Below are positions 7,436 through 26,483 of a DNA stretch of 64,000 bases, piece by piece. The position numbers were made by a program, and so were the translations under genes. Location of the stretch: IMG/VR virus record IMGVR_UViG_3300037541_000632, positions 37,265 through 101,264 of that record; one strand, given 5' to 3'. The DNA is from a virus. Under the pieces are notes generated by a model. That model was not told where the DNA came from, made no database searches, and was given only the letters and a program-made list of their open reading frames with translations. Numbering within the stretch: position 1 is the stretch's first letter; every line of letters starts with the position of its first letter.

Positions 7436-8784
7436 TTATTTTCTGCTGCTACTGCTTTTGCAGGAGTAACAGGAGTAGACATTGCTTGGTCAATCAAGTC
7501 ATCATCTTCAGATAATTCATCAATTACATCAGGCGTAGCTCTACCCGTAGAAAAAGGTTTGCGATCATTAGTCTGCTTCTCTTCGCTAGAGTCAATGCTA
7601 TCTTCTGAATTTAAATCTTCATTCTGTTCGATGTCATCTTCTTCAGAAGTATGTTCCCCCTGGCCTTTCATTTTATTGACTAGTGCCAGAATATCTTCAA
7701 GAGACATTTCATTGGCTTCTTTACTAATAACAAAACCATCATTAAGTTTACCTACCATTTCAAATCTATTCATCGCACCAATGGTGCCTGCGATTTTAAT
7801 AAGAGTGTCTAAACATTCCTCATTTTGCAAGCTAGCAATCTTGGTAAACCTAGGAGCCATATCGTTATACTCGGCAGCTGCGAGCAAAGCTACAACAGGA
7901 TTTAATGACGCGCTTTTAACGCAGTAACTAATGGCACACTGCTTCTGTATAGGCGTGATATTAATTTCTGATGCACCTTTAATGGTGTCCATAGCAGAAT
8001 CAAAACCATACTCAAGAATGTGCGTTGCTAATTCCGGGCCTCTGCCTTGAGCAGTCGCATGCACAATATCTACTAACTCAGATTGTGCTGCGGACTTACT
8101 ACCCATGCATAAATGAACAAGAAATTCTAAAGCATCATCTGATTGCTCCACAGATGCTGATTTATTGTAAGCCGTATTTTCCTCTTCAGCTTCCTGTTCT
8201 TCTTTAGGATTCTTGCGAATGACAATACGCTTGGGCGCTGTGTTCTTTGGTTTCTTAACTCTAGGGAAAGTTTTATCCAAAGCTTTATTGGTTAAAGCAC
8301 CAGCGGCAATAGCGCTAAGCAAAGTAAAAGCCACGGGAGAAGACCAGATTAATTCTCTTAAACCCATGGGCTCGCCTGCTGCCGCCGCATTCTTAGCCTG
8401 CGCTTCTTGTTGCGCATTTTCAATAAATGCTTGCTGCGCTTGATCCAATTGTTCTTGTAATTGTTTGCGTTTAACATTCTGATAAAGCTTTCTCACTAAA
8501 GCATAAGTACCAAGTGTAGAAAGTAAACCGCCGGTTAAAGCCATACCTCCAGCCGCTAAATCTATAGGACCTGAACTTTCGTTTTCGTTAGCAGACTTAC
8601 CCACGTTAAGATAAAGCGTATCATCATCTTCTTTATCTGTATCGTCAGGAACTTGCTGTTTAAGTGTATTGATATAATTAATCAATGAGGTGAGCAAAGC
8701 ACCAGAACCACCAATAGCGGCACCGCCAATAAGGTAATTTTTGATTAGTTCTTTACTGCGGGGAGTTAAGGCTATCTTTTCCAT
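7432..8784 (-). CDS. putative virion (internal/ejection) protein with Gly-rich hydrophobic helices
   Basis: GGAAIGGSG and similar segments; seven K-x-A-[ASN] motifs; near the portal gene. Confidence 0.6.
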   Translation of the reverse strand: MEKIALTPRSKELIKNYLIGGAAIGGSGALLTSLINYINTLKQQVPDDTDKEDDDTLYLNVGKSANENESSGPIDLAAGGMALTGGLLSTLGTYALVRKLYQNVKRKQLQEQLDQAQQAFIENAQQEAQAKNAAAAGEPMGLRELIWSSPVAFTLLSAIAAGALTNKALDKTFPRVKKPKNTAPKRIVIRKNPKEEQEAEEENTAYNKSASVEQSDDALEFLVHLCMGSKSAAQSELVDIVHATAQGRGPELATHILEYGFDSAMDTIKGASEINITPIQKQCAISYCVKSASLNPVVALLAAAEYNDMAPRFTKIASLQNEECLDTLIKIAGTIGAMNRFEMVGKLNDGFVISKEANEMSLEDILALVNKMKGQGEHTSEEDDIEQNEDLNSEDSIDSSEEKQTNDRKPFSTGRATPDVIDELSEDDDLIDQAMSTPVTPAKAVAAENK

Positions 8785-8785
8785 T

Positions 8786-9223
8786 TTAAGAAGTCGTAAT
8801 GAGTTGTTTGTATTCTACTCTAAAGTATTCCAAAAGCATCAACCATTTTCCTTCATGGAAATTTTCCTTGCGACTTGCAAGAATAATTGAAGGGGCATCC
8901 TCAGGTTGTTGCTTGGAAAGTAAAGCATTTAGTTCTTTGAGCTTATCAGGATTAGCAGCATCAAAAACAGCTACAACAGGTCCTATTAATCTAGTAGATT
9001 GAGGGAAACGTTTATACTGATCTTCAAATGTAGGAGTGGCTATCCAAATTGTTTTTCCTTTAGGGTCTCTCTCTTCTTTAAAATCAGAGTCATCCACTTT
9101 ATCTTTAGTAGTGACTTCTGGAGAAATAGAAGAAGGTTGAATTTTATTTGGATCAACCTTTACTCCAGACCCCGGGTCCATCATTTCTGCTAACATAACC
9201 GCCATCTCATCTGCTGTACTCAT
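8786..9223 (-). CDS. hypothetical protein
   Basis: 145 aa in the structural operon. Confidence 0.7.
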   Translation of the reverse strand: MSTADEMAVMLAEMMDPGSGVKVDPNKIQPSSISPEVTTKDKVDDSDFKEERDPKGKTIWIATPTFEDQYKRFPQSTRLIGPVVAVFDAANPDKLKELNALLSKQQPEDAPSIILASRKENFHEGKWLMLLEYFRVEYKQLITTS

Positions 9224-9229
9224 AAATTA

Positions 9230-9877
9230 TTAAAATAAGTTTTCTCTTTCTGCTATTTCTTGGACTTGTGCTGCTAATTGTGCTGGTGCTAAATTTTTAG
9301 TTCCTAACTGTCTTTTGATCTCATCTGAAATCTTATTATAGTAATCAATTTTGGCTTTAACTACTTCAGCCTCATCTTCGTCTTCTTGCGCATGCCTATT
9401 AAGAAGCCAATACAAGCCTCCAGTTATACCACCTCCAACAGCACCGACACCGGCTATGGCTCTAACAACTTCAGGTGTAACTTTACCTGCTGTAGTCAGT
9501 ATATTAGGAAGAAAATTAGCGGCTTGTTTAACTATGGTATCATTAGAGGCTTCTTTAATCTGCTGTTCGTATTCATCGGCAATCTTACCAAGAGAGGCAA
9601 GCGCAGCGTCAGAATAAGCGTCGAATTCAGGATACCAAGATGGTGTGTGCGCAAGCTTTTCAAAAATGTGATACTCTATTTCAGTTTTACGCCCAGCTTC
9701 TGCGAAAGCATCAGCAGCAATTTTACATGCAAACTTTTGAATAAATCCATAGTTTGTTTCTTTGTAATTATCGATGGTAGAGACTAACCCAGATATAGTT
9801 ACAAGACTTTGTGGATCTCTGCCGCGAGCAGCAGAAGCTAATTTAACGCCTAAATTAAAAAATGATGAATCATTCAT
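9230..9877 (-). CDS. putative virion protein
   Basis: KLAS/KEAS/KQAA motifs; hydrophobic AGVGAVGGGITGGLYW segment followed by a coiled coil. Confidence 0.6.
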   Translation of the reverse strand: MNDSSFFNLGVKLASAARGRDPQSLVTISGLVSTIDNYKETNYGFIQKFACKIAADAFAEAGRKTEIEYHIFEKLAHTPSWYPEFDAYSDAALASLGKIADEYEQQIKEASNDTIVKQAANFLPNILTTAGKVTPEVVRAIAGVGAVGGGITGGLYWLLNRHAQEDEDEAEVVKAKIDYYNKISDEIKRQLGTKNLAPAQLAAQVQEIAERENLF

Positions 9878-9878
9878 G

Positions 9879-10865
9879 TTAAAGATAATTTCCTAAAAGA
9901 GTTCTGCCTTGGAAAGATGGCTGACCTAAATCGTTCCTGGGAACAGGAGGACCAAACAAAGACCTAGCAACAGTACCGCCAAAAATAGCGCCTAATACTG
10001 TACCAATCAAACCCTTATTCATTAAAAATCTAGCTACGATGGCACCAACAGCAGCGCCTCCGAAACCAATTAAAGAATTAGATAATTGAGAAACTTCATT
10101 TCCTGCTAATTGCGATACACCAGCAATGAGCTGACTTTTTTCAGAAAAGGATAATCCCGGGGCGTCTTGGATAAGCTGTACAACTCTAGCCTGCGCGTCA
10201 GAAGCGCTTGTGAAAGCAGCTTTAACATTTGCTGGTTTATTCATACCAGCTAAGGCCTGCGATCTATTCAGGGCGTTTATTCTTTTAAGTTCTTCGGGTG
10301 TCCATTTTTCCCGTTCAAGATTAGGAGCGTCCCACTGCGGTTTATATTTACGCAGATAACCACTATAAGCACCCAGTGAACCTGTAGCTAAACCACCAAT
10401 TAAAGCATTACGAAGTAAATTATTAGATACTGAATTACCGGTTAGCAGATTCAAAATACCAGTACCTGCCGCACCAAGTAACAGCCCCGGAGCCATAGAC
10501 AGCAAACCGCCAGCAAGAGGACCTTTGTTTAAAACTTCACCAATAGCAGGCCCATAGCCTTTATAAAGCTGATTGATCTTATCACCCATCGCATAGCCAA
10601 ATGATCTATTACTTTGGAATGGATGGTAGTAAGCATTTAATGCTGCATATTCGGGATTCTGTTTTTTAAACTGGTCATCGTATGTTGACATCCACTGGAG
10701 AGGAGACATCTCCATGGTATCCTCTTTATAAGGAGAAAGAGGATTAGGTACAGTTATTGTTCCGGCGTCAGAGGTCGAAAAATCATGAATCTTGTTTTTA
10801 ATCTTGCCCTTTATGGCAGGATCCAAAGCATTATACAGTGCTGTTAATGAGGGATCTTGGGTCAT
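9879..10865 (-). CDS. putative virion glycine-zipper membrane protein
   Basis: multiple GxxxG hydrophobic segments. Confidence 0.6.
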   Translation of the reverse strand: MTQDPSLTALYNALDPAIKGKIKNKIHDFSTSDAGTITVPNPLSPYKEDTMEMSPLQWMSTYDDQFKKQNPEYAALNAYYHPFQSNRSFGYAMGDKINQLYKGYGPAIGEVLNKGPLAGGLLSMAPGLLLGAAGTGILNLLTGNSVSNNLLRNALIGGLATGSLGAYSGYLRKYKPQWDAPNLEREKWTPEELKRINALNRSQALAGMNKPANVKAAFTSASDAQARVVQLIQDAPGLSFSEKSQLIAGVSQLAGNEVSQLSNSLIGFGGAAVGAIVARFLMNKGLIGTVLGAIFGGTVARSLFGPPVPRNDLGQPSFQGRTLLGNYL

Positions 10866-11181: not shown

Positions 11182-11523
11182 CTAGAATTCTTTACCGTGC
11201 AGTCTTTCCCGGGTAGTGTTGTATTGAATCTTAGCTGCCATAGCTTCAAAGACCCTCCACTTCCGCCCAGCTGCCAAATCGCAAATGCGAATAATAGCAT
11301 CAGCTAGTTCAGCCTCAACACCAGTATATTCTTTTACCTTGTCATCAGGAGGATTGCCGTGTCTCAAAGCCTCGAGAGCTTCGGAAAGCTCTGAATGGAT
11401 AAGCGCTATAGCTTCACCATCATTACGTTCCTTGTCCCAGAACCCTTTGTTAACTGCATTCTGGTAAATAGCTACAGAAACAGTATTCATTACATCCACC
11501 CAGTCGATTTTAATTTCTTCCAT
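11182..11523 (-). CDS. MazG-like nucleotide pyrophosphohydrolase
   Basis: IALIHSELSEALEA...EAELADAIIRICD (ExxE...ExxD). Confidence 0.85.
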   Translation of the reverse strand: MEEIKIDWVDVMNTVSVAIYQNAVNKGFWDKERNDGEAIALIHSELSEALEALRHGNPPDDKVKEYTGVEAELADAIIRICDLAAGRKWRVFEAMAAKIQYNTTRERLHGKEF

Positions 11524-11532
11524 TTGATTTAT

Positions 11533-13344
11533 TTACATTGGTTGTGATAAAGCCTGCCTGCCCTGACTTTCAGCTTGAGATCTCATTTCTTCCATCTTTT
11601 GCTTAGCCATTGCATGCAAGTTTGGATTTGACGTGCGAACAGCTGCCATTTGCTTCTGCCGTTCACCGACAGGCAACTGCAACCATTGCTGTGCCATTTC
11701 AGCAGCTTTATTCTGGATGTCAAGTGGATTCATATCCCCACCTCCAGCTGCGCCCTCCATGCCAGCAGGAGAGCTTCCTCCACCACCACCTTGCTGCGCT
11801 TGCTGCGCCAAGATACTGTCCATAGAACCCAGTTGTTGTTGCCTTTGGAAATCAGATTGAAGTTTCGCCTGCTCTTTCTGAATTTCAATATCTTCCTGAG
11901 CACGCTGTTTGGCCGCTTCAACAGGGTCTTTGATACCGAACGGACCATATGCAATGGAACGAGGAATTTCAGCACCAGCTGCAAGTTGCATGTATACGCG
12001 TTGACGTTCAAGATCATCAGCAAGACGAGGAAGCTGAAGAGAAGCTTCAAGACGCTGCTGCCCAATATAGTCACATATTCTTCCAGCCGCCCATTTTACA
12101 ATTCTTGCAAATCCTTGATGAATAAAATGAAATGAATTTTCAAATAAACGAACAGCAGTAGGGATCTGCTGCACCTGAAGAGAACCTTTAAACAGTTCCG
12201 CAGGATAACCCATAGAATCCAGCAGAACATTGTTATGATATTCCACAAGTTCCTTAGGCGCTAAACTTTTACCTTGAGCTCCAAATTCTTGATAGCTAAC
12301 AGGGAATGGCAAAGCGTGCATTGCAAAAGGATCAAGACGGCGACGCTTGATAACCTCTTTAATCTCAGAGCCCCACCGGTTCAGAAGCATGTAATTCATT
12401 GGGTCGCTAGCCTGCGAAGAAGCCACAGGATGGAACATACGGAAAGGAAGCATATAGTCTAAACCAACAGCTTCATCAATTTTACGCAAAACCTGAAGCT
12501 GATGAATATGCCGGAAGTTAGCTATGGTTTCAGGCAGTCCCCAACCATAGTTGGAAACACCTGAAATTGTAGGAGCCTTGAAATGAAACACCTGCCCTTC
12601 ATTAAACAAGAAATCCTGTTCAAGCGCGATAGCCTTGAGCATACTCATGGGCGTCTCATTCACCTGATACATAATACTATTTTTAATCATAGTAACCCAC
12701 TCAGGTTCAAAACGATAAATCATTTGTTGCTTGCCGCTCATGAATGAGTGCTGCAAAACAATCTGACGAGGATCTATTTTACGTAATCTAATTCTAGACT
12801 TGTCCCGGGAAGGGCGGTCAATGAAATCTAGTTTAACTCTAGCTCTTTTATCTTTAGGTCTGTCAAAGGTAGTAGGATCAGGCACATCATATTTCATGGC
12901 CTTATAATCATACTTTACATCCGCGCCGAACATAGGAAGCGCGTACTCTTTATATTTACCATCTCTATGATCAACAAGAACACGATCAAATGGAAGATGC
13001 AATCTAAGGAATGCATTACCGTAACACGCCCATTCCTGACCTACTTCAAGTAATGCCCCGAAAATGTCCAGATCATCAATAAGGAATTTCTTAAATTCAT
13101 CACGCTCATCTTGATCCCCGTCTTTGCCTACAAAATCAATATCCGTAACAAAGTGGCTAATTACTCTAGTAGAAGCGCGACGATAAAGAGGGTTTAAATA
13201 ATAAAGGAATAAACAGAAGTCTAAAGCAGACTGTAACTCTGTTGGAATAGCCGTGCTACTAGGAAGCAGGAAGGGGTCAGCAAAGACTCTGTTTTTACCT
13301 GTCCAAACTGCAAATGCGTCGTTGTCGCCGGGATAATTGACCAT
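11533..13344 (-). CDS. portal protein (putative)
   Basis: 603 aa; EWACYGNAFL and VFHFK...GWGLP motifs typical of portals; Gln-rich C-terminus. Confidence 0.7.
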   Translation of the reverse strand: MVNYPGDNDAFAVWTGKNRVFADPFLLPSSTAIPTELQSALDFCLFLYYLNPLYRRASTRVISHFVTDIDFVGKDGDQDERDEFKKFLIDDLDIFGALLEVGQEWACYGNAFLRLHLPFDRVLVDHRDGKYKEYALPMFGADVKYDYKAMKYDVPDPTTFDRPKDKRARVKLDFIDRPSRDKSRIRLRKIDPRQIVLQHSFMSGKQQMIYRFEPEWVTMIKNSIMYQVNETPMSMLKAIALEQDFLFNEGQVFHFKAPTISGVSNYGWGLPETIANFRHIHQLQVLRKIDEAVGLDYMLPFRMFHPVASSQASDPMNYMLLNRWGSEIKEVIKRRRLDPFAMHALPFPVSYQEFGAQGKSLAPKELVEYHNNVLLDSMGYPAELFKGSLQVQQIPTAVRLFENSFHFIHQGFARIVKWAAGRICDYIGQQRLEASLQLPRLADDLERQRVYMQLAAGAEIPRSIAYGPFGIKDPVEAAKQRAQEDIEIQKEQAKLQSDFQRQQQLGSMDSILAQQAQQGGGGGSSPAGMEGAAGGGDMNPLDIQNKAAEMAQQWLQLPVGERQKQMAAVRTSNPNLHAMAKQKMEEMRSQAESQGRQALSQPM

Positions 13345-13519: not shown

Positions 13520-14107
13520 TTATTCAGGTTGAACTCGCAGGAAGGACACAAATGTAAAAGGTATTTTGGGAAAAGTAAAGAACCCTCCCGCATAAATTAC
13601 AGAATAGTCCTGCCCTAGGTATTGTATAGTTAATTCTGTATTTATGTTTGGCTCGAACTGTATAGCATCCTTTTTAATCATAAAGGCAACGCCAAAATCA
13701 GTGATACTAACATTTAAAGCTTTAAAGCCTATCTTGCCGAAAGGACTAACAATCTTTATTTCTTCGTGTGCAGTTGTTTGTTCAAGATAAGCAGAAAACA
13801 TCTGTACAGGATCTTTACTCACCATAACTCTTTCTTTGTACGCGCGTGTTTCTTCCATAGAACATAAAGCATCTGGATCTTGGAAACCAACATCAGAAAT
13901 TTCTTCTTCTGGATTGGTTGTAAAATCTGTATCATCGCCATCATCGGAAACGTAAGCCACGTTCTCTTGTATTGTCAGAACTGGCAGTTCAATACCAAAT
14001 TGCGAGGCTTTAACTTTATGTCCCTGTAAAAGCTTCTCTTTAAAGCTCTTCATAGCAGACACAGCCTGTGGCGTTCTTTCAACTCCCGTATCAATACTTT
14101 GCGACAT
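13520..14107 (-). CDS. hypothetical protein
   Basis: 195 aa in operon. Confidence 0.7.
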   Translation of the reverse strand: MSQSIDTGVERTPQAVSAMKSFKEKLLQGHKVKASQFGIELPVLTIQENVAYVSDDGDDTDFTTNPEEEISDVGFQDPDALCSMEETRAYKERVMVSKDPVQMFSAYLEQTTAHEEIKIVSPFGKIGFKALNVSITDFGVAFMIKKDAIQFEPNINTELTIQYLGQDYSVIYAGGFFTFPKIPFTFVSFLRVQPE

Positions 14108-14109
14108 AA

Positions 14110-14808
14110 TTATATAGTATATTTCTTAGCATTGTCTGTGAACTTAGCAACGCTCTTTTGTGATTTATAGTGTTTTTTCTTTCCTGTGGTTACCTGATGT
14201 TTAATAGCACTAACTGCGTGTATATCCAAATCACCCTCCATGACTGGTATATTCATACTACCTACTTTTTTAGATAGTGTAAACATAACACATAGATGCC
14301 CTCCAAATACATCTATCTCATAAAAGTTATTTTCATCACCACAAACAATCTTGGCAGTCTCATATTCATTTTTTCTATTAACAAATTCTAAAGACAAAAT
14401 CATGTCTTTAGGCACAAGCGTTTCAAACAGAAACATAGCAGCTTTGCGTACAATCTGAGAAGCCTGATATTGGTTGCCTTGTCCTAGGCACTGCGCATAT
14501 GATTCCTTGAAGTCTGTAAATATGTTTCTGGCTTCAGAGAATTTAGCTTTAAAATCAAATATACCATTAATAAAATTAGCATCCAAACCTAACTGCTGAG
14601 TTGAAGAACGAATCAAAGCTAAGCGCGCTCTTTTATTTACACCCTGCAGTAAACGATACCACGCGGATCTGCTAGAGTACCCTAGCGTGTTGGATATATC
14701 TGTATGTGTTTTGTTATTAGCTTTAGCCCAACTGTTCAAACATTTAATCCACCTCTGTGTCTGTGCCGGGGTTGCGAAAGCGCCTAGCTTTGGTTTTTTG
14801 TATCCCAT
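14110..14808 (-). CDS. putative HTH DNA-binding protein
   Basis: XRE-like THTDISNTLGYSSRSAWYRLLQG. Confidence 0.5.
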   Translation of the reverse strand: MGYKKPKLGAFATPAQTQRWIKCLNSWAKANNKTHTDISNTLGYSSRSAWYRLLQGVNKRARLALIRSSTQQLGLDANFINGIFDFKAKFSEARNIFTDFKESYAQCLGQGNQYQASQIVRKAAMFLFETLVPKDMILSLEFVNRKNEYETAKIVCGDENNFYEIDVFGGHLCVMFTLSKKVGSMNIPVMEGDLDIHAVSAIKHQVTTGKKKHYKSQKSVAKFTDNAKKYTI

Positions 14809-15173
14809 ATTTCTTTATTTTTTAAAACATTCGATTTCTTATTTTTTATGGGAGTCTCATAACTAGGTTTAGCCTCCCCTAAATGATCGACATGTCTATA
14901 GTCACATTCCCACAGAACGCGAGCTAAAAATTCACTTACTGCTACGACTTTATCTTCTGTCCAATCTCGACATGACTCATGCAACGCTTCATGCAAGACA
15001 ATCAATAATCGCTGAAAACCTTTTAACCTTACATCAATAGATATAATTGACGTTTTGTCGCTTACCTTTTCCCATAAACCAAGAGACTGCCTGTGTCCTA
15101 GCTTGGTTTCTACCAGCTTAATCTTTTTTCTATTCTTGTTAGTTTTAGTATTTGCTGATTTCGATTTGGGCAT
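14784..15173 (-). CDS. small zincin-like metalloprotein
   Basis: IVLHEALHE (HExxH) followed by WTEDKV. Confidence 0.6.
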   Translation of the reverse strand: MPKSKSANTKTNKNRKKIKLVETKLGHRQSLGLWEKVSDKTSIISIDVRLKGFQRLLIVLHEALHESCRDWTEDKVVAVSEFLARVLWECDYRHVDHLGEAKPSYETPIKNKKSNVLKNKEIWDTKNQS

Positions 15174-15210
15174 AAAAAAACTCCGTGGTAGATATACTCT
15201 ACCACGGAGG
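15174..15210 (-). terminator. intrinsic terminator
   Basis: CTCCGTGGTAGA/TCTACCACGGAG stem with a T run on the minus strand. Confidence 0.75.
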
Positions 15211-15231
15211 CAAAAAGTTGCATCAAGATTA

Positions 15232-15417
15232 TTACTGTAGCCCTTCGAGGATGTTACCGCGAAGTTCTACGAATTTATTTTCTCTGGCTTTGTCTTGCTC
15301 GACATAGTCAGCAAACTTTTTAGACGTGGTGTTGTCATCGTATACTGCGGATGTATGACGGATAAAACCTTCATACTTAGCTTGGCGGATTAGTTCAGGA
15401 GTGATTTCTTGTGACAT
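15232..15417 (-). CDS. small hypothetical protein
   Basis: 61 aa; own TTGACA-N16-TAAACT promoter (about 15427-15454) and terminator. Confidence 0.65.
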   Translation of the reverse strand: MSQEITPELIRQAKYEGFIRHTSAVYDDNTTSKKFADYVEQDKARENKFVELRGNILEGLQ

Positions 15418-15463: not shown

Positions 15464-16147
15464 TTATAGTAAATGAAATTGCGGCTTATTAGCTTGCGAT
15501 GACGGCGGGCCAGCAGGCATTGCGTCCCGAAGCGCTCCTCTGTAGGCAGGTACACCAGACGGCGGGCGATAAGGCAGGCGACGAGCTCCTTGGTAGGAAG
15601 GCGTGCCAGACTGAGGGGCGAATCCTGGATCTTGCCCGTGCTGTGAATTTAAACTTTTTAAGTAATCTTGATACTGATTACCAGATGGTGGAATAAAATC
15701 TTTATCTGGTGTGTTCCAGTTATTAACAGACTCCAGTTTATTCTCAGGTAGATAACCAGGCGATGTCCGAGGTGTTAAATTTTTTATAGACTGCATAGGG
15801 TTACTATTGAATCCTTGATTTAATGCACCTAACCCTCTGTCTAATAAACCACCTATATTTTGCCCGACTTGACCGCCTAGGCTTTTACCCGCAATGTTAC
15901 CTAACTGCTGGCCTCCCATAATACTACCAGCGATACCACCTAAAGTATCACCAATACCATATTTATTACCTAGCATTTGACCCATGCGCTGACCGCCAAC
16001 AAGATTACCAACAAACCCGCCTGCAGCGCCTCCTAAAGTGGTACCAAGCTGCTGACCCATCTGACCTAGTGCGTTGGGAGCTAAAGCATTAAAGTTAGCC
16101 AGCTTAAATAAATAACTAGAAGCAATTAGTTTGTCTGCATTCTTCAT
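15464..16147 (-). CDS. glycine-zipper putative virion protein with conserved leader
   Basis: MKNADKLIASSYLFKLA leader; long GxxxG repeats. Confidence 0.65.
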   Translation of the reverse strand: MKNADKLIASSYLFKLANFNALAPNALGQMGQQLGTTLGGAAGGFVGNLVGGQRMGQMLGNKYGIGDTLGGIAGSIMGGQQLGNIAGKSLGGQVGQNIGGLLDRGLGALNQGFNSNPMQSIKNLTPRTSPGYLPENKLESVNNWNTPDKDFIPPSGNQYQDYLKSLNSQHGQDPGFAPQSGTPSYQGARRLPYRPPSGVPAYRGALRDAMPAGPPSSQANKPQFHLL

Positions 16148-16153
16148 AAGATA

Positions 16154-17110
16154 TTACCATTCACCGTAACCATACTCTGGATTGTATATGTCTTTAGCTC
16201 GCGGCTTCATCAAGTCAACACCTTGAGCTTGTAAGCCCTTCAGATAATTCATTTTAGCCTCATCCAGACGTGAGCCCTCGGTATAGTTACCCATGTATTG
16301 CCTGAATATTTGATTATAATCAGGCTGGGCAGCAGGAGGAGCAGCAGCAGGAGCAGCAGCAGGAGCAGCAGGAGGAGGAGGAGTGGAAGGCGGCGCAGCA
16401 GGTCGAAGTGCGGGCGGCTGACTGGAGGTGACCGGTGCAGGCATCGGTGCCGGTTGAGGAGTCAAAACAGGAGCGGGGCTGGGCAGGGCGGGAGTAGCAG
16501 TAGCTGCTGAGGTAGGGATCTGGTAAGGTTGAGGAGCGCCTCCTACACCCATAGCTCTATTAACACCATATGCGCCTAAAGCGCCAGCGCCTAAACCAAC
16601 AGCCCCAGCTTGAACTAATGGATTCTTAGCTGCAGATACTAAACCGCTACGAACGGCGGCGGCACTACTATTCAAACGATCGCGAGCGGCAGCAACGCCA
16701 CTACTCAAACGATTACGAGCTGCAGCAGCGCCACCTCTTATGGCTTGTCCCGTGCCAGTCATAACCTGCCCAAGCCCTTGCCTAGCTAAACCTAATCCTG
16801 TAGGCATAGCTGCGACAGCAGCTGGAGCAACTGCAGCTAAAGCAGGAGCAGCCGCTGTTTGCGTTAAAAAGGAAGGCAAAGGTAAAACAGCAGGAGCCGC
16901 TGGAACAACATCAGGCACATTACGTAAAATAGGCTTCCGTGAAGTACGTTTAGGCGCACGTTGGGTAGTAATTTTGGGTTTTATTTTCCTGGCTGAGCTG
17001 GTGGATGTCCGCGCCAAATTTTTGGCCATCGCAATACCTACGCGACCCGAACCTCCGCCAGCAGATTTAATTACGTACCCAGATAAAAAAAGTTTGTCTG
17101 AAAAATTCAT
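16154..17110 (-). CDS. Pro/Ala-rich putative virion protein with conserved leader
   Basis: MNFSDKLFLSGYVIKSA leader (an alternative start is 17125); hydrophobic GAVGLGAGALG segment. Confidence 0.65.
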   Translation of the reverse strand: MNFSDKLFLSGYVIKSAGGGSGRVGIAMAKNLARTSTSSARKIKPKITTQRAPKRTSRKPILRNVPDVVPAAPAVLPLPSFLTQTAAAPALAAVAPAAVAAMPTGLGLARQGLGQVMTGTGQAIRGGAAAARNRLSSGVAAARDRLNSSAAAVRSGLVSAAKNPLVQAGAVGLGAGALGAYGVNRAMGVGGAPQPYQIPTSAATATPALPSPAPVLTPQPAPMPAPVTSSQPPALRPAAPPSTPPPPAAPAAAPAAAPPAAQPDYNQIFRQYMGNYTEGSRLDEAKMNYLKGLQAQGVDLMKPRAKDIYNPEYGYGEW

Positions 17111-17179
17111 AAAATAAGGTGACATAATAAAATGTATTTTAGTTTACAAGTCAAGAAAATTTGCCTAACTAGCTTTAAT

Positions 17180-17866
17180 TTACGGTATAGCTGCGGGCAT
17201 AGGTTTAGTTGCTTTTCTATGAAGTTCTAAAGCTTTTTGTAGGGCTGTATTTATGTCTTTAGAAGAAACTCGAGCAGCATTATTTCCTGTTCCGTGGTAG
17301 TATGACCGTTCGCCTTTAGCTGGAAGAGCTGCCCACTCTTTAGCGAGGTTAATTCTCATTTGATCGGCATTAATTTTACCTGCTAAATAATCTTTAAAAC
17401 CTCTTCTATCCATTAAACTTCTAGCGTAGGTATCCTGTGTGCCCTGATTAAACAAAGTTTTATTTAAATCATGTTTATGCTGCGCTGCCAGATTTCTTAA
17501 ATTCTTATTGAGAATCTGATACCCACCTGCGGCAGTTCCACCATAAGTTTTCAATCTTTCTTTTTGTATATCAAGAACTTGCTGTAGCGTTTTACCAGTC
17601 AAACCAAATGGTTTATTACTGCCCACCATGGTGTCGTAACCGGCCACATTAGCTTCACCTCTTCTTATAACATCCAGTATAGGCTGATAATATGCGAATG
17701 AATTAACAGCCTGGTTATTAACAACAGGCTTAGCTTTAGTTATAGGAATAGCTTTAGGCGCTGGAGTAGTCGCTGTAGCAGGCAGTCCGGTTATCACAGA
17801 GGAATAAGAAGAGCGTGCTCGCTTTATAATAAACGAACTTAAATTTAATTTGTCTAAACTATTCAT
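17180..17866 (-). CDS. lysozyme-fold muramidase/transglycosylase, probably virion-associated
   Basis: LDVIRRGE...TAAGGYQI...QD...LAKEWAALP...SYY, typical of lambda-R-like lysozymes; leader MNSLDKLNLSSFIIKRA. Confidence 0.85.
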   Translation of the reverse strand: MNSLDKLNLSSFIIKRARSSYSSVITGLPATATTPAPKAIPITKAKPVVNNQAVNSFAYYQPILDVIRRGEANVAGYDTMVGSNKPFGLTGKTLQQVLDIQKERLKTYGGTAAGGYQILNKNLRNLAAQHKHDLNKTLFNQGTQDTYARSLMDRRGFKDYLAGKINADQMRINLAKEWAALPAKGERSYYHGTGNNAARVSSKDINTALQKALELHRKATKPMPAAIP

Positions 17867-17867
17867 A

Positions 17868-18593
17868 TTAGTCTGGTAATTTTACAGTAAGTCCGTCAAG
17901 ATCTTCAGGACTCATCCATTGATATTTCTTGGTTCTGCGATTAAAGAATTTCTGATACGGTTTACCGTCAGATCCAATTTTTGAGCCCCACGCCATTCTG
18001 GTATCAATTCCTATCTTTTCACTCTCCGGGCCTTCTAGGGTCGATACGAATCCAAACTGATCTGTCCTGATAGCCTGCATATCTTCAGTAATGGCATTAT
18101 CAGTACCAATACCGCCCGGACCCATCTGGGTAGCTCTACGTGATTGCTCTAATAGATGTAGCGGATTAATTTCTTCCAAAGGCGAAGATAAAGGATTACC
18201 TATCAGGAACTTTTCCATATAGGAATCAAATGCAAAAGGACCCACAGCTTTAAGATTCTTATGCCGGGCAATTAGCGGCATCATTGATCCGCGCACTCTA
18301 TCACTATCTAAACGCACACGTTCAGATAACAGACGATCAGTAGTTAATATTCTTTTGAATAATAAACTATCTCGCTCATCAGGTTTATCCAGCCCACGAT
18401 TAATAGCGAGAAGTTTTTGAGAGGCGGAAAGTAACCCCTTAACTCCTACAGGAACATACTCTTCTTCATCATCCGGAATACCGTTGTCGTTTGAATCGAT
18501 TTTACGATTAGGCAGAATGGAGCGAACCTTAGCAACAGCTGAAGCTTGCTTCTGCACCTTGGAAAGTATCTCATCTATTTGGGATTTATTCAT
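17868..18593 (-). CDS. multisubunit RNA polymerase beta subunit, middle (fork/Rif-region) fragment
   Basis: EEINPLHLLEQSRRATQMGPGGI...FGFVSTLEGPESEKIG aligns by eye to RpoB [23 protein letters not shown]...YGRVCPIETPEGPNIG. Confidence 0.85.
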   Translation of the reverse strand: MNKSQIDEILSKVQKQASAVAKVRSILPNRKIDSNDNGIPDDEEEYVPVGVKGLLSASQKLLAINRGLDKPDERDSLLFKRILTTDRLLSERVRLDSDRVRGSMMPLIARHKNLKAVGPFAFDSYMEKFLIGNPLSSPLEEINPLHLLEQSRRATQMGPGGIGTDNAITEDMQAIRTDQFGFVSTLEGPESEKIGIDTRMAWGSKIGSDGKPYQKFFNRRTKKYQWMSPEDLDGLTVKLPD

Positions 18594-19792
18594 TAGCTCT
18601 CATAGCCTCCCGTATATTTCTTAGTGAGATGTGCAGCGCCTGGAGATAACGCAAGTGCCGCGTAAGTTGGCAAACCAACAAAAGGAGAAAGTCTTTGAAG
18701 CTTGGTTAGTTTACCTTTAGCTAATCTATTGAGTAAATTGGAACCACGCACAGAAGCATCTAATTCAGATGCTAATAAAGGCGAGGCTAATAAAGGCGAA
18801 GCTAATGCGGTGTTTCTACCTACTTCTTCGTTTTTAGTATGAATAATATTACCTGTAGCTAATGCTGGAGCCAGCATTGATAACTGGCGAGTTAAAGGTT
18901 TAGTATATATTTTTGGTCCCATCGCGTGGCCCATTTCGTGCGCTAAGATACCAGGACGAAGTGCCCCTTTGACGCCTCGCATATTATCTGAATAATAAAA
19001 CGAATCAGGATCTATAATAAAACCTTTGGCTTTGTCTTTACCCACGTCAGCGCCTGACAATTTTTTAATTAATCTAGAAATTAAAGAGTCGTTGTTATCA
19101 GTGTAAGCAGGTCCAGAAAATAAAGATCTGGTAAGTGTTTCTCCGACTGGGCCTAAATCCGGTTTTTTTATTCTATACGTGCCGTCAAAATTAGGATCAA
19201 CTATTTTTATTTTTTTACTTCTTAAAAATCTGTTGAAAAGACCATCTACCTCAGGACTAAGTGGCGGTGCAATATCTTTAAAAATCTTGGGAACCGCATG
19301 ATTAAAATAAAGAGATCCAAAAAAAGGTGGTATCATCGCGCTTATGCTGGCCGCTATATTAGCTCTAGACGCGTCTGATGAATCTTTAGGAGCGGTGCTG
19401 GCACTTTTATCTTGTAAAGATCTTCGTGTCATTTCTCCACTAACAATAGCTTGAGTTACTGGAATAGAAAGTCCCGCAGCAAGAAAAGCCTTGGCTTTAG
19501 GACCTAATATAGACACACCCGTTCTACCTATAAGCTGAGCCAGGTTACTTCTGAATTTTGCGCCAGGAAGCATGCCTGGTAATTTATGCCCTTGGGAAGC
19601 GATAGCCCCTGCAATTCCAAAAGGAATTAATTTAGAATAGCCATGCGAGTCTCCCCTCAACGCAGCATCATAGGCGTTAGTAAGAGAATTTTGACCAAAT
19701 GCTTTCCTTTTAAGAGACCACAATTCATTATTATAAAAAGGAGAAGACAATAATAAATAATCAGATAAATTAAAATCTTTACTTTCTTGCAT
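18593..19792 (-). CDS. membrane-associated zinc metallopeptidase-like protein
   Basis: GILAHEMGHA, a downstream ELDAS candidate third ligand, and hydrophobic segments. Confidence 0.65.
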   Translation of the reverse strand: MQESKDFNLSDYLLLSSPFYNNELWSLKRKAFGQNSLTNAYDAALRGDSHGYSKLIPFGIAGAIASQGHKLPGMLPGAKFRSNLAQLIGRTGVSILGPKAKAFLAAGLSIPVTQAIVSGEMTRRSLQDKSASTAPKDSSDASRANIAASISAMIPPFFGSLYFNHAVPKIFKDIAPPLSPEVDGLFNRFLRSKKIKIVDPNFDGTYRIKKPDLGPVGETLTRSLFSGPAYTDNNDSLISRLIKKLSGADVGKDKAKGFIIDPDSFYYSDNMRGVKGALRPGILAHEMGHAMGPKIYTKPLTRQLSMLAPALATGNIIHTKNEEVGRNTALASPLLASPLLASELDASVRGSNLLNRLAKGKLTKLQRLSPFVGLPTYAALALSPGAAHLTKKYTGGYES

Positions 19793-19797
19793 ATATG

Positions 19798-20523
19798 TTA
19801 TTCATTTGATTTATGATACTTATTCCAAGCGTCTTCTTTATAATTTTCCATAGCTTCAGCTAATTGTCCACGCACTTCTTCGTCTTCAATCATTTTCAGA
19901 GGATCGATAGCCCAGTTACGTAAAGCGAAAGCACGACGCGGAGTTGGATTCTTTTTAAACTGAGAACCATGTCTAGCTTTAAAAGACTTCCACCGTTTAA
20001 TCTGTCTATCGTCATCTTCAGATCTACGGCCAGCTTTGTACTGCTCGTACCATTGCAACCAGCCCATAGGATCGACATCACTTTTGATCCATTCAGAAGG
20101 CCACTTATCCATGGATGCTAACCGGGGACCGTAGTGACCGTAGATAGCATTGTAAGCATCCTGAATTTCTTCAGGTTTATAGTCAGGAATAAAATCAGAT
20201 TCTGCCGCTTCTTTTTTATACTTATTCACTGACTTTTCTTTTTTTAATTTATGCTCGTAAGGGTTATCCAAATTATCTATGTCTTCAGCATCTAATTCCA
20301 ATTCATAAATAGTAGGCTCTCCTTTTGGTTCTTTTTTCCATTTTGGTTCAGTCCCAAGATAATGCACTTCTTCTAAATCGGAGTCATCCCAGGTTTTACC
20401 AGTATCTTCATGGTACAAACCCATCAATCTAGCAATAGCCATGTCAGGAGTAATATATGATCCCTCTCTTAACACTTCTATATCTTTATATGGCGAACCA
20501 TGGTAATACTTTTTTTTATTCAT
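19798..20523 (-). CDS. two-domain protein: N-terminal ADP-ribosyltransferase-like domain plus C-terminal DPxGWxQWY domain
   Basis: YYHGS...SYITPD..IA...IYELE pattern; KEAA linker; DPMGWLQWY...GRRSEDDDRQIKRW. Confidence 0.5.
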   Translation of the reverse strand: MNKKKYYHGSPYKDIEVLREGSYITPDMAIARLMGLYHEDTGKTWDDSDLEEVHYLGTEPKWKKEPKGEPTIYELELDAEDIDNLDNPYEHKLKKEKSVNKYKKEAAESDFIPDYKPEEIQDAYNAIYGHYGPRLASMDKWPSEWIKSDVDPMGWLQWYEQYKAGRRSEDDDRQIKRWKSFKARHGSQFKKNPTPRRAFALRNWAIDPLKMIEDEEVRGQLAEAMENYKEDAWNKYHKSNE

Positions 20524-21715
20524 AGTCTAAATCCTCCTGGTATACGCGCTTTACATTTTTAGGAATTACTTCCCGAGGAACATGGATTCTAAATCCTGTA
20601 GGCATGTGTGTAATACCAGACATACGCCCATCCTGATCAACAATAAATTCATCAGGATACCTAGCCAAGGCTGCAGCCATAATAGCTGTCTTCTTTTTGT
20701 ACTCTTCTTTAGCTTGCGCGCTATGCGTTCTAGCCTGCATTAACGCATGCATATCTGCAGCAGATTTAATACCTTCGTCTTCGTCAAAATAATTATCGTA
20801 AACATGCGCAGGTTCAAAATCAGGATTAAAAGGCATTTCATCAATAACTTTTTCAGCTGCTTGTTTACCCTGCCATTGCGCTTCCCACTGCGAGGCTATC
20901 TTTGGATCAAACATGTTAGGCAGATTCTTCTGCGCTACCCGAGCATGAATCTGTGCCGCTTCTAAGGCGTTACGAACAGACGTCATTTTATCTTCTCTTG
21001 ATTTATCCAATTTCTTTTGACGTGCCGGAACAAGACGGTCATATGCTTTATCAAATACACGCGCGTCGTACTTCATTTGATTCGCACGAAAGATTTCAGG
21101 ACCCCAGGACTTTTCCAGTTCCTTATCACTTGTGCCTAAATCTTTTAGAAGACTGTACAGGTGCAAATTAGCTTGAGAAATCTTCACTCTATACTGTGTA
21201 GTCTCAGGTTCAAAACCAACACGGAAACCAATACCCGTACCAGGTTTAACATTGAACTGAGTTTCTAATTCTCCGTTAGCCTGTCTACGAGTGTAGACCC
21301 CGGGAAGAAGGCGTGATTGCATAATAGATGCGTACTCATTACCTCCATGAATAAATGTACCCCTGTTAGTAAGGTAAGGTACCTTCATTAATGATATGCG
21401 TTTCTCTTCTAACAACTGATCATTAGTGTTATCAAATAATTTTATTGTACCTCTTAATTTTTTAGTTATGTATTTATTTTCAAGCAGGTTTTTCTTCTGT
21501 TCTGATACAGGCACATCTTCTCTATCGTCGTAGTCTACATCTTGTAATTCCATTCTTACATTTCCATAATTAACAGGAAATGATTTGATCATGGAATTTT
21601 TTACACCATCAAAAATTTGATTGCGTAATGTAGTGAAGTCATCAAAGTCGCGAAGTATAACGCCTTTTGGTAATTCTTCTTCTGGCTCAATATTTTGCTG
21701 CATATGGTGAAACAT
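20516..21715 (-). CDS. multisubunit RNA polymerase beta subunit, N-terminal fragment with extra C-terminal domain
   Basis: LMKVPYLTNRGTFIHGGNEYASIMQSRLLPGVY matches RpoB [33 protein letters not shown]. Confidence 0.85.
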   Translation of the reverse strand: MFHHMQQNIEPEEELPKGVILRDFDDFTTLRNQIFDGVKNSMIKSFPVNYGNVRMELQDVDYDDREDVPVSEQKKNLLENKYITKKLRGTIKLFDNTNDQLLEEKRISLMKVPYLTNRGTFIHGGNEYASIMQSRLLPGVYTRRQANGELETQFNVKPGTGIGFRVGFEPETTQYRVKISQANLHLYSLLKDLGTSDKELEKSWGPEIFRANQMKYDARVFDKAYDRLVPARQKKLDKSREDKMTSVRNALEAAQIHARVAQKNLPNMFDPKIASQWEAQWQGKQAAEKVIDEMPFNPDFEPAHVYDNYFDEDEGIKSAADMHALMQARTHSAQAKEEYKKKTAIMAAALARYPDEFIVDQDGRMSGITHMPTGFRIHVPREVIPKNVKRVYQEDLDYE

Positions 21716-22066: not shown

Positions 22067-22105
22067 TTACAATTATATATAGCACAATACGAATGGCTAT
22101 TGCAT
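22067..22105 (-). promoter_or_regulatory. conserved promoter motif (copy 3)
   Basis: minus strand ATGCAATA...TTGTGCTATATATAATTGT followed by an AACCCC/GGGGTT hairpin. Confidence 0.65.
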
Positions 22106-22129: not shown

Positions 22130-22162
22130 GCGCGGTAGTTATCCGCGATCTCTTTAATAATA

Positions 22163-24282: not shown

Positions 24283-25953
24283 TTAATTATTAACTTGAAA
24301 GTATTTTTCTAAATAGCCATGCTTATCATTATCGGGAGTTTTAACATATCCCAATACTTGATCTAGCTTCGTATGCGCTCTAGCTGCTTTAATAGCCAGT
24401 CGCTCAAAGTCGATCTGATTAACAGAGCCTATAATTCTCGTAGCGGATCCACGGTAAGGTGGAATGAACCGGATAACAGATTGATCATCCCATTTTTTGA
24501 AGTGGTTGGTGATAGTCTGATAGCCCAAACCGATATGATCAGAGAACCAGTTCAGATCTATATTAAAGAAGCCATCTTCTTCTATACCGTATTCTAAAAT
24601 AGTATTCCACCACACCTCAAATCTGGAATCATCTTCTGGTGTATTCTCATCCAGTCTGATTTTAGCAATCTTCTCGCCGTTCTTTTCTCGTTCTATAATT
24701 CTATTAGATTTTAGAACTTCCAAAATAGCAGGCACTTTACGACTAAATAAATTAGTCTTCTTTGCTATGTCACTGATTGTGAGTTGCGATATTCCATTAC
24801 TATCTGCAGCTAAATTAAGAACACGCATTACAGCATTGATCTCAGACTTAGAAGGATAACTGCACTCTATAAAAAACTTCTGTGTATTATAACTATCAGG
24901 AGAATAGAATGTCATGCAAGTCGAGTCTTTACCATCACGACCAGCACGACCTACTTCCTGAGCAAGTGCTTCTAATGATCCCGGGATATCGCGGTGAACG
25001 ACACCACGAATGTTACCTTTGTCCACGCCCATACCAAACGCATTAGTAGCTACCATGACACGAATTTTATCATTCATGAACATGTCCTGATTAACACGCT
25101 TGTCTGTAGGCGATAGCTCGCCATGGAAAATAATTACATCTTCTCTGAGAGCGGACATTAATTGTTTAGCAGTCTGCTCAACTTTATTAATGGTTGCACA
25201 GTAAACAATAACAGGCCCATCTACACCAGAGATGAAATCAGCAAGCTGAGTCTCACTCAACATGTTGTCACTCTTAAGGTGTAGGTTAGTTCTACGTGGA
25301 TAGTATGAAAGCCGCTGTGCATTCTCTAAATGAAGCACACGACGGATGTCATGTTCGACTTCATCCGGACATGTGGCAGTAAATGCAGATACAACTTTAG
25401 GGTTCTTTTCACGAATGAAATCGCCCACGAGACAATAACTGGATCTAAAATTATCAGACCACTGCGACAAACAATGAGCCTCATCCATGACAACCATGTC
25501 AGGAGGCACGCGAGCCATAGCGTCTTTAAATGCCTCATTGTGTAAACGCTCAGGCGCTACATAAATAAATTGAAGTTCTCCTTCAGCCCAACGCTTGATA
25601 GCTGCTTGGTTTTCAGCTTCAGTTTGCATTGAGGAAATAGCCTGCGCTTTAATTCCTTTAGCCGTTAGACCTTGAACCTGATCGCGCATAAGCGCGACCA
25701 GGGGCGAGAAAACAATGGCTCGCCAACCAAGGCATAACGTCGGAATTACAAAGCAAGCGGTTTTACCCGTAGAGGTCGGAAGAATACACACGGTATCTCT
25801 TTGAGCCATAATATTAACAATCACCGGTTCTTGACCTGCGCGTAACTGAGAAAACCCCATTACGCTCAGAGCATTAGGCAACTGTGTATACCCGCTCTTC
25901 AAGACATCCATGTTAATCTTGGACTCTCTAGTCTGCTTTATAGTCTCTGACAT
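24283..25953 (-). CDS. recQ: RecQ-family ATP-dependent DNA helicase
   Basis: LPTSTGKT, SPLVALMRDQV, YVAPERL, DEAHCLSQW, TAT, ATNAFGMGVDK, QEVGRAGRDG. Confidence 0.93.
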   Translation of the reverse strand: MSETIKQTRESKINMDVLKSGYTQLPNALSVMGFSQLRAGQEPVIVNIMAQRDTVCILPTSTGKTACFVIPTLCLGWRAIVFSPLVALMRDQVQGLTAKGIKAQAISSMQTEAENQAAIKRWAEGELQFIYVAPERLHNEAFKDAMARVPPDMVVMDEAHCLSQWSDNFRSSYCLVGDFIREKNPKVVSAFTATCPDEVEHDIRRVLHLENAQRLSYYPRRTNLHLKSDNMLSETQLADFISGVDGPVIVYCATINKVEQTAKQLMSALREDVIIFHGELSPTDKRVNQDMFMNDKIRVMVATNAFGMGVDKGNIRGVVHRDIPGSLEALAQEVGRAGRDGKDSTCMTFYSPDSYNTQKFFIECSYPSKSEINAVMRVLNLAADSNGISQLTISDIAKKTNLFSRKVPAILEVLKSNRIIEREKNGEKIAKIRLDENTPEDDSRFEVWWNTILEYGIEEDGFFNIDLNWFSDHIGLGYQTITNHFKKWDDQSVIRFIPPYRGSATRIIGSVNQIDFERLAIKAARAHTKLDQVLGYVKTPDNDKHGYLEKYFQVNN

Positions 25954-26483
25954 ATATATTTTAAAGTACTCAAACACTGCTCCGTTTTAGACTCACCTTG
26001 CGGCGTAAGGTCTAACCATCTAGCTATGGTTTTATAATTAAAGTTCTGCCTGCGGTCAAGTGTCAAAATGGTTGGCTTATGGAAAGCCTCGCATATATCC
26101 ACTGTTACCCGGGATAGGCGTTGAACATATTCATCGACACTAGATATGGCAGTACCGTGCTTGAGCAAGTACCATCTATAAATAGGCAGTAAAATGTTAT
26201 TGGGGTGTACGGTAAATATACGTCGCCTCTCCATATTATCAGAATGGATAAGAGAGGCAATGATATTAGCTACACCACCATGTTTAGCAATTTCATAAGA
26301 AGATATATGAATTGTTTCATCACAATTACCAGCGCACGTACTAGCTATAGGACTAGCGGTGTCACAGTTAATGCAATAAATGTCATATGATTCATCCCAG
26401 ATTTGTTCTGGTAAAAAAGGAAAGGAAACTCCACCATCAGTTTCTTTTACGAAAGCGATGATGGAGTAATTTTGATTAAACAT
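25938..26483 (-). CDS. hypothetical protein
   Basis: 181 aa in operon. Confidence 0.65.
   Translation of the reverse strand: MFNQNYSIIAFVKETDGGVSFPFLPEQIWDESYDIYCINCDTASPIASTCAGNCDETIHISSYEIAKHGGVANIIASLIHSDNMERRRIFTVHPNNILLPIYRWYLLKHGTAISSVDEYVQRLSRVTVDICEAFHKPTILTLDRRQNFNYKTIARWLDLTPQGESKTEQCLSTLKYICQRL

Follow-up and report, generated by a model that had tools for sequence, protein, structure and literature searches.

Why should the gene for an RNA polymerase subunit be interrupted by genes for unrelated proteins, and where is the rest of the enzyme? The question is raised by a stretch of viral DNA of 64,000 nucleotides (positions 37,265 to 101,264 of IMG/VR virus record IMGVR_UViG_3300037541_000632), here called the window. 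An original prediction had recognised in it two pieces of the RNA polymerase β subunit, in collinear order and separated by a gene resembling ADP-ribosyltransferases (ART) and a zincin gene. Analysis of the window and of related contigs leads us to propose, as the best explanation of these sequences, that the window carries the first two of five genes for one phage RNA polymerase, and that the gap between the two is a slot of variable content. The genes in question belong to a tightly packed minus-strand run (15.2-22.1 kb of the window), in which gene starts overlap or abut the preceding stops and GGAGG-type ribosome sites are present. In order they are:

20516-21715, minus strand: first β piece (N piece), at the 5′ end, 399 amino acids (aa)
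19798-20523, minus strand: cargo gene 1, an ART-fold domain and a helical module, 241 aa
18593-19792, minus strand: cargo gene 2, a candidate zincin-type metallopeptidase, 399 aa
17868-18593, minus strand: second β piece (fork/rifampicin-pocket piece, or fork piece), 241 aa

The repeated lengths hint at a tandem duplication. This was ruled out: BLASTP shows no cross-similarity among the four proteins, and the lengths are therefore a coincidence.

In phmmer searches of the PDB, the N piece matches RNA polymerase β chains only (best E 3.2e-05, query residues 101-211 on β 95-208), with further β-chain matches spanning residues 21-223. Its residues ~21-270 are the β1/β2 lobe region. The fork piece passes the cut-off of Pfam RNA_pol_Rpb2_3 (PF04565; 26 bits against 21) and aligns with PDB β chains (E 1.1e-08, residues 55-235 on β 429-617), the alignment taking in the ...RR....GPGG fork loop and the rifampicin-pocket segment. 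It spans the end of the lobe, the return into β1, and the fork loop/rifampicin-pocket region. The polymerase of Salmonella phage Arash consists of gp206 (1525 aa), which is β fused to the front half of β′, and gp216, which is the back half of β′, together with phage sigma factors (OQ632216, PMC10585845). The N piece matches gp206 27-246 (E 1.5e-22) and the fork piece gp206 268-470, with 27-31% identity to this starting region of gp206, and both also match the equivalent gene of three Vibrio phages in the GenBank phage search. Because the two pieces match adjacent stretches of the single gp206, they are collinear neighbours of one β, as had been predicted. Together they make up the front third of β, in an uncultured phage of ~180 kb.

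In the rifampicin-pocket segment of the fork piece (residues ~146-158, ...HLLEQSRRATQMGPGG), Gln stands in place of the His of the ...THKRR... found in the aligned bacterial PDB chains. We take this His to be a rifampicin contact, and the phage enzyme may for that reason be insensitive to rifampicin.

Each piece has an additional segment. The N-piece tail (residues ~270-399) is not found in contiguous relatives. K-x-A occurs in it four times, at 317 and 342 in the form K-[ST]-A, and the tail shares a small conserved motif, ...YPDEF..GITH.PTGFR.H.P, with the relatives P0083 and P0097 described below. Residues 1-~53 of the fork piece are a leader or linker with K15-Q-A17. The K-x-A motifs of both segments had been pointed out in the original prediction, and are present as described.

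The split is not confined to the window. Seven IMG/VR contigs, derived from other samples, encode the two β pieces as separate genes in every case, the N piece being 82-95% identical (six of the related contigs) and the fork piece 85-97% identical. As the same two-gene split occurs in seven independent metagenomic contigs, it is not an assembly error, a possibility that had been raised with the prediction. That these are two β pieces, and that the split is real, is in our judgement very nearly certain.

In three related contigs the fork gene is 567-946 aa long, owing to one or two inteins inside it. The inteins sit in the conserved EGPE|SEKIG motif, begin with Cys right after LEGPE, end ...SGN before Ser, and carry LAGLIDADG signals; the fork gene of the window is intein-free. 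As inteins tend to occupy conserved sites of functional importance, their placement here would speak for a fork piece that is in use. A split intein at the junction of N piece and fork piece was also considered. It was rejected by eye, the N-piece tail having no Cys or Ser-block start, and it is equally unsupported on the other side, where the fork leader has no terminal HN plus nucleophile.

The rest of the polymerase

The C-terminal half of β, and β′, were predicted to lie outside the window. This is so: no Rpb2_6 or Rpb1 signal was found in the window, in its 101-kb contig (56% complete by CheckV), or in five related contigs. Catalytic pieces were absent from G000-G006 and from G008, and were found only on reaching G007 by way of overlapping contigs. 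G001 overlaps G000, G005 extends G000 by ~37 kb, and G007 extends G005 by ~18 kb. G007 is collinear with G005, itself collinear with the window's contig. The four contigs sum to ~182 kb, which is the size expected by CheckV, and each polymerase segment occurs once. The remaining genes are:

G007: β C, the third β piece, 1413-aa gene; matches gp206 486-1105; Rpb2_6 (PF00562) 3e-51; GDK at 728
G007: β′-N, 376-aa gene; matches gp206 1141-1523; Rpb1_2 2e-24; NADFDGD at 283
G007: β′-C, 1018-aa gene; matches gp216 10-600; Rpb1_4/5; one intein (LAGLIDADG insertion)
L030:9815-10567 (G005), plus strand: sigma-like open reading frame (ORF), 251 aa; Sigma70_r3 26.5 bits, cut-off 25.3, 7e-06

The β C gene contains two inteins, ending HN|T and GN|S. 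With the two pieces of the window, the three distal pieces tile gp206 and gp216 of Arash without overlap, and the span equivalent to gp206 is divided here among four genes in two loci ~85-95 kb apart. The original claim that β is encoded by at least three genes is correct for the lineage, the third piece being that of G007; within the lineage, the remaining subunits lie elsewhere in the genome. A scan for more contigs with the β′-N gene returned G007 alone.

The third β piece runs ~90 residues into β′, from which it follows that the lineage descends from a fused layout and was cut at three new places. The ancestral layout would have been β fused to the front half of β′, plus a separate β′-C, and the three further cuts would lie between lobes and fork, after the fork (at the end of the 241-aa gene), and ~90 residues into β′. 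Since the pieces tile the polymerase exactly and those of the relative keep their catalytic motifs, the five pieces most likely assemble non-covalently into one enzyme. The 251-aa ORF, which in addition to its region 3 match has a weak region 2 match and a weak match to the Arash sigma factor gp196, is likely to be the sigma factor of this polymerase. The comparison with phiKZ-like phages drawn in the original prediction does not fit this enzyme: the pieces are much closer to bacterial β, the ancestry is of the Arash-like fused layout, and a sigma-70-like gene is present. On the sequence evidence, the enzyme is an Arash-like, bacterial-type, sigma-using polymerase, and not one of phiKZ type.

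It could be argued that the β fragments are relics or decoys outside any active polymerase, given that catalytic pieces are missing from the window and from the whole of its 101-kb contig. We find this hardly credible. Few genes of the locus are as conserved as the fragments (82-97% identity, as against 30-70% for their neighbours), relatives maintain inteins in the fork motif, and each complementary piece is present in the lineage in exactly one copy, with GDK and NADFDGD intact.

Small genes lie between the distal polymerase genes of G007 (L041:4323-5878 and 7010-10839). They include one for an Ala/Pro-rich protein with a leader-like start, one for a collagen-repeat/tail-fibre-like protein, and three paralogues starting MP..VPL.N. 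A distant relative, the IMG/VR contig L035 (200,737 bp; 34% identity in one protein), gave no match to Arash gp206 or gp216. Either some phages sharing genes with this lineage lack the polymerase, or the L035 copy is in an unrecovered part.

A variable slot between lobe and fork

The contents of the gap between the two β pieces were compared over eight loci, namely the window and the seven related contigs:

Window: ART-module gene and zincin gene
L006: ART-module gene and a 377-aa protein with no assigned function
L007: N piece fused to the module, then zincin gene
L003 and L004: leader-bearing protein of 170-205 aa and module
L001 and L005: opposite-strand GIY-YIG/NUMOD1 homing endonuclease and module, followed in L001 by a 376-aa protein
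L002: end of the zincin gene alone visible, the contig beginning inside the gap
L001:7580-8473, minus strand: the GIY-YIG and NUMOD1 homing endonuclease, 297 aa; Pfam 7.6e-11; same place in L005

The first cargo gene of the window has two parts. Residues 1-~100 are modelled by AlphaFold2 as a minimal ART-fold domain with a predicted local distance difference test score (pLDDT) of 92; the model is confident only with a domain-specific alignment, the N domain having pLDDT <50 when the whole protein is folded. Its best 50 structural neighbours (VIA search, 48,161 chains) almost all have the ADP-ribosyltransferase fold. They include KptA/Tpt1 (Z 6.5, root-mean-square deviation 2.7, 74 residues aligned), the Rhs toxin TreX (5.9), the rifampin ADP-ribosyltransferase Arr (5.6) and diphtheria toxin (5.2), followed by PARPs, ParT and RES toxins; each of these Z scores is modest, and the weight lies in the uniformity of the list. 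YYHGS, GSY and YEH, with H8, Y23 and E90, are invariant in 16 homologues, among which E74 and E76 of the YELE string are not conserved. The call of an ART fold, as a model, is sound; H8, Y23 and E90 are at most candidates for the catalytic H-Y-E (or R-S-E) residues. Pfam ART families gave no match to this gene. Elsewhere the ART-type domain occurs alone, or fused to NUDIX or zinc-peptidase domains.

The second part (residues ~105-241) is an all-helical module of 136 residues (pLDDT 85-97). No convincing fold relative was found for it: the best, the C-terminal domain of mimivirus R596 (Z 5.0), lies within the noise expected of helical proteins, and the best E value in a profile search of the PDB was 0.13. 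The module is present in every related locus in which the gap is recovered and is the sole constant of the gap. It takes the form of a free gene of 134-137 aa, stands behind the ART domain, or is fused to the end of the N piece.

Cargo gene 2 is, at the motif level, a candidate zincin. H285, E286, G288, H289, E343 and D345 (HExGH plus the downstream E/D) are invariant in 14 homologues. The protein begins with a conserved leader (M.ES..F.L.DY) and contains hydrophobic segments. The gene is found in only three of the eight loci. Nothing usable for either cargo gene came from the ESM Atlas. The fold neighbours and the invariant HExGH agree with the two identities first proposed for the genes between the β pieces.

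The junction is variable on a wider scale also. An exhaustive profile-free search with the fork piece returned 1148 relatives, and the best 150 were classified. The largest class (63) consists of contiguous forms, in which the lobes are directly followed by the fork and the rest of β, all with at most ~41% identity. Free fork proteins account for 46, proteins with N piece and fork that stop at the fork end for 14, and forms with a lobe-fork insert of 110-520 residues for 9. Three of these nine (P0083, P0094 and P0097) encode in a single ORF the N piece, a HAD-like domain, an InPase domain (PF18823, E 1e-36 to 1e-49) and the fork. A single ORF joining both β pieces to enzyme domains therefore exists in related phages, with HAD and InPase as the inserts and not the ART and zincin of the window. 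K-[ST]-A occurs 5, 4 and 3 times in the three proteins, compared with 0.86, 0.78 and 0.69 expected, and the sites inspected in context, a subset of those counted, fall in inter-domain linkers, one of them just before the fork.

Complete-fork relatives above ~42% identity end at most ~20 residues from the end of the window's fork gene, and most of them exactly there. Fork ends so nearly identical imply that the post-fork cut is old and shared. In a tree of the fork domain this closer group is one clade (support 99), and inside it free, fused and insert-bearing forms are interleaved, well-supported branches forcing at least 8 changes. The tree shows what appears to be repeated fission and fusion at the lobe/fork junction. 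The original prediction had derived the separate genes from a polyprotein with effector domains inserted between cleavage sites. Single-ORF relatives with K-[ST]-A linkers do exist, but the polyprotein-first direction is not borne out, because the forms are intermixed on the tree and the more distant relatives are contiguous without an insert.

A second route is suggested by two of the related loci. The homing endonuclease gene of L001 and L005 lies precisely between the N piece and the helical-module gene, on the opposite strand. Its presence at the junction points to mobile elements as agents that also split the gene and exchanged the cargo.

Leaders, neighbours and possible delivery

The two β pieces and their cargo are part of a longer gene run, the remaining features of which, with those around it, are:

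22131-22147: terminator-like site; the promoter match below comes just after it
22072-22099, minus strand: sigma-70-like promoter match, 10/12, upstream of the N piece; a consensus match only
17180-17866, minus strand: candidate lysozyme-like cell-wall hydrolase, 228 aa; phrog_90 'endolysin' 2.5e-17; 17-residue leader ending K-R-A
16154-17125, minus strand: Ala/Pro-rich low-complexity protein; leader ..DKLFLSGYVIKSA after the second Met
15464-16147, minus strand: Gly-rich protein; leader ..DKLIASSYLFKLA; weak PHROG matches to tail lysin and tape-measure segments
15232-15417, minus strand: 61-aa ORF (…ITPELIRQAKYEGFIRHTS…), conserved throughout the related loci; it separates the terminator from the low-complexity genes
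15181-15209, minus strand: strong terminator-like hairpin, 12-bp stem and T run, closing the gene run
11533-13344, minus strand: portal protein, 603 aa; BLASTP 5e-40 against Arash portal gp204
11182-11523, minus strand: small protein named pyrophosphatase by PHROGs, 113 aa, free-standing; phrog_3301 9e-30; adjoins the portal gene

The portal gene is ~2 kb downstream of the run, with four conserved small genes (13520-15417) in between. The name of the 113-aa gene is a PHROGs label, the InPase (PF18823) described above being a domain inside β of some relatives. Megablast of the locus against GenBank phages gave no match. Most neighbours, like the N piece, the ART gene and the zincin, were also without a match in Pfam and PHROGs.

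The lysozyme-like, Ala/Pro-rich and Gly-rich genes downstream of the fork piece are, like the gap, variable among related loci. Their proteins share a leader of 17 residues, M-x-x-x-D-K-L-x-x-S-x-x-x-x-K-x-A, which is also found on one cargo protein in G001. When four contigs were scanned for this pattern, it was essentially confined to the cluster and not genome-wide. The free-standing fork proteins of relatives with 40-75% identity have an amphipathic leader, usually ending K-x-A.

Some further observations concern insertions elsewhere. In L003 (14380-17148) and L004 (15850-18621) the portal protein has 922-923 aa, compared with 603 in the window, the extra ~320 aa being near residue 107-156 and intein-sized. 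The DEAD-box helicase (window 24283-25977) has a ~300-aa insertion in L006. Of three window genes (41453-43975, minus strand; 54129-57035, plus strand; 30619-35019, minus strand), two carry intein or endonuclease signals; they comprise a SF2 helicase with Hint and LAGLIDADG and a 968-aa ORF with LAGLIDADG. The third, of 1466 aa, has a UDG-like domain, a 3′-5′ exonuclease and PolA, the PolA match being in two pieces.

An alternative reading of these observations would be that β is a plain case of genes in pieces: homing endonucleases and other mobile DNA cut the β gene and dropped in unrelated genes, the polymerase reassembles without proteolysis, and the cargo has nothing to do with either polymerase or capsid. 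The endonuclease at the junction in L001 and L005 speaks for such a history. LAGLIDADG inteins are moreover frequent in the lineage (fork piece, β C, β′-C, portal and helicases), and the N piece and the ART gene are without a leader. This explanation does not account for the linker K-[ST]-A motifs of single-ORF relatives, for leaders conserved on free fork proteins across 40-75% identity, or for leaders common to cargo and portal-proximal neighbours; and the gap in the window itself has no endonuclease. We consider it unlikely, while noting that it overlaps with the account favoured below in everything save cleavage, so that the two likelihoods are not to be added.

It had been predicted that the polymerase is packaged in the virion. 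For Arash the data are in favour: in mass spectrometry of purified virions, gp206 gave the most spectra of any protein, above the major capsid protein, and gp216 was in the top five (PMC10585845). For the phage of the window, packaging would follow by analogy and from the surroundings of the genes. The window pieces are co-transcribed with lysozyme-like and low-complexity proteins. Such proteins are typical of those that phages eject. One may suppose instead that the polymerase is synthesised after infection and is no part of the virion, that its proximity to the portal gene is coincidental, and that the leaders serve membrane or complex targeting or some other purpose. A host-type promoter match does precede the operon, and the distal polymerase genes in G007 sit among tail-fibre-like and unassigned genes, not head genes. 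The abundance of gp206 in Arash particles and the company of the window pieces argue the other way, and we regard a purely intracellular enzyme as quite improbable. Here too the overlap with the favoured account is complete save for packaging, and the likelihoods are not additive.

The account that we favour, the simplest to cover all these observations, combines these elements. The lobe/fork cut is a variable slot, co-transcribed with leader-bearing proteins near the portal gene. Polymerase pieces and cargo would be packaged in the capsid and would reach the host along with the DNA, and a capsid protease would trim the proteins after a hydrophobic-K-x-A signal. If cleavage occurs after K-x-A, a long ORF and several short ones would yield the same mature proteins; fusion, fission and domain insertion would then be nearly neutral, and hence repeated. 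Homing endonucleases would be a second force for turnover at the slot.

Several points weigh against this account. What the sequences show is the identity of the pieces, the split, the tiling, the variable gap, the single-ORF forms and where the motifs lie; assembly, packaging, cleavage and a role of the cargo as injected effectors are inferred. The virion preparation of Arash contained 116 proteins, and its authors allow that abundant intracellular enzymes may be carry-over (PMC10585845). No prohead protease was recognised in the window or near the portal gene. K-x-A by itself is a common tripeptide, and enrichment is seen only for K-[ST]-A and for leaders at specific positions; an N-terminal leader is not obvious on the three distal polymerase pieces, nor on the products of the N-piece and ART genes. 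The window's own genome is incomplete and the distal pieces do not come from its own molecule: they belong to the relative G007, which has 50-70% identity with G005 in shared regions. The tree was built from a short domain and a quick search, and some of the 'free' forms could be artefacts of gene calling. With all this taken into account, we still judge the whole account, that is a split five-gene polymerase with a cargo slot, together with packaging and K-x-A cleavage, to be somewhat more probable than its contrary.

A further step can be proposed only tentatively, and in our estimate it falls short of an even chance. The β gene of a virion-carried polymerase could be an evolvable cargo rack, on which effectors (ART, zincin, pyrophosphatase, HAD) can be swapped without harm to the polymerase, with the 136-residue module perhaps acting as an adaptor. 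If this were true, an enzyme placed between lobe and fork modules would be co-expressed, co-packaged and released, whether as an inserted domain or as a leader-bearing gene, and the helical module may link the cargo either with the polymerase or with the inside of the capsid.

The locus is of interest for several reasons. Metagenomes and Arash have provided examples of bacterial-type polymerases encoded by phages, but their construction and delivery are not known to have been studied. Here the enzyme would seem to tolerate cuts at three new positions, one of which appears to be an active exchange point for enzymes that the phage probably injects. Natural split sites may be useful for polymerase engineering, and the leaders offer a candidate signal for capsid targeting and cleavage. 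The gap contents form a catalogue of candidate host-takeover enzymes, in which variability marks conflict genes. Finally, the proposal gives a testable account of why one protein so frequently alternates between fused and split forms in phages.

Comparison with known systems

Jumbo phages of the phiKZ-like and AR9/PBS2-like groups reportedly have multisubunit RNA polymerases with β and β′ each in pieces, one set being in the virion. Enzymes of phiKZ/AR9 type are said to be highly divergent, to have no sigma-70 factor, and to have β split in two. Here, in contrast, β is in three pieces, cargo genes lie within the split, and a sigma-70-like gene belongs to the lineage. PDB sequence searches with both pieces gave β chains only, with no phage chain listed, and a distant kinship to phiKZ/AR9 is possible.

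The mReC phages, known from metagenomes, have bacterial-like β and β′ (Weinheimer and Aylward 2020, PMC7481178). The lineage described here resembles them in consisting of uncultured tailed phages with β and β′ that align readily with bacterial subunits. In the text of that paper the words 'split', 'intein' and 'virion' are absent (PMC7481178). The Gp23-type capsid (PF07068), which is a feature of mReC, gave no match in G000, G001, G005 or G007, where the gene may be divergent or uncovered.

Genes in pieces are a second point of comparison. The nrdA gene of Aeromonas phage Aeh1 is reportedly split by mobE, and split DNA polymerase genes are said to occur in T4-like phages. As in those cases, the gene of an essential enzyme is here cut into separately translated parts, and a free-standing endonuclease is present in the gap of two relatives. 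The difference is that most gaps here hold enzymes or unassigned proteins, and that fused insert-bearing forms coexist with split ones.

The leaders recall those of head proteins. In T4, internal head proteins and Alt are said to have capsid-targeting leaders that are removed by the prohead protease at the motif L/I-x-E, Alt being an injected ADP-ribosyltransferase. In SPN3US, the prohead protease removes N-terminal propeptides from several head proteins, among them the ejection proteins gp53 and gp54 (PMC10052503). The likeness lies in short N-terminal leaders with a fixed end motif on unrelated proteins, and in the presence of an ART-fold enzyme among them. Unlike in T4, the motif would be K-x-A, and the ART-fold protein is one of those without a leader.

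Polyvalent proteins (reportedly described by Iyer, Burroughs, Anand, de Souza and Aravind in 2017) are said to be strings of effector domains, such as ART, zincin and pyrophosphatase, that are thought to be delivered and cut apart. The InPase family PF18823 was presumably defined from such proteins. In the present case the carrier differs, being the β subunit of a polymerase, and in the window the domains are separate genes.

The nearest system is that of Arash, which with the Vibrio phages D69/D148/D181 has a polymerase of the same family as this lineage. In both, the polymerase gene is near the portal gene, and a sigma-like gene is present in the lineage. The difference lies in the arrangement: gp206 has no insertions, whereas its equivalent here is four genes, the first two of which are separated by cargo, and relatives have inteins in addition. 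Split RNA polymerase subunits and genes in pieces are thus already known in other phages, and what is new is that β is split three ways, that it contains a slot for variable cargo, and that single-ORF forms punctuated by K-x-A coexist with this arrangement.

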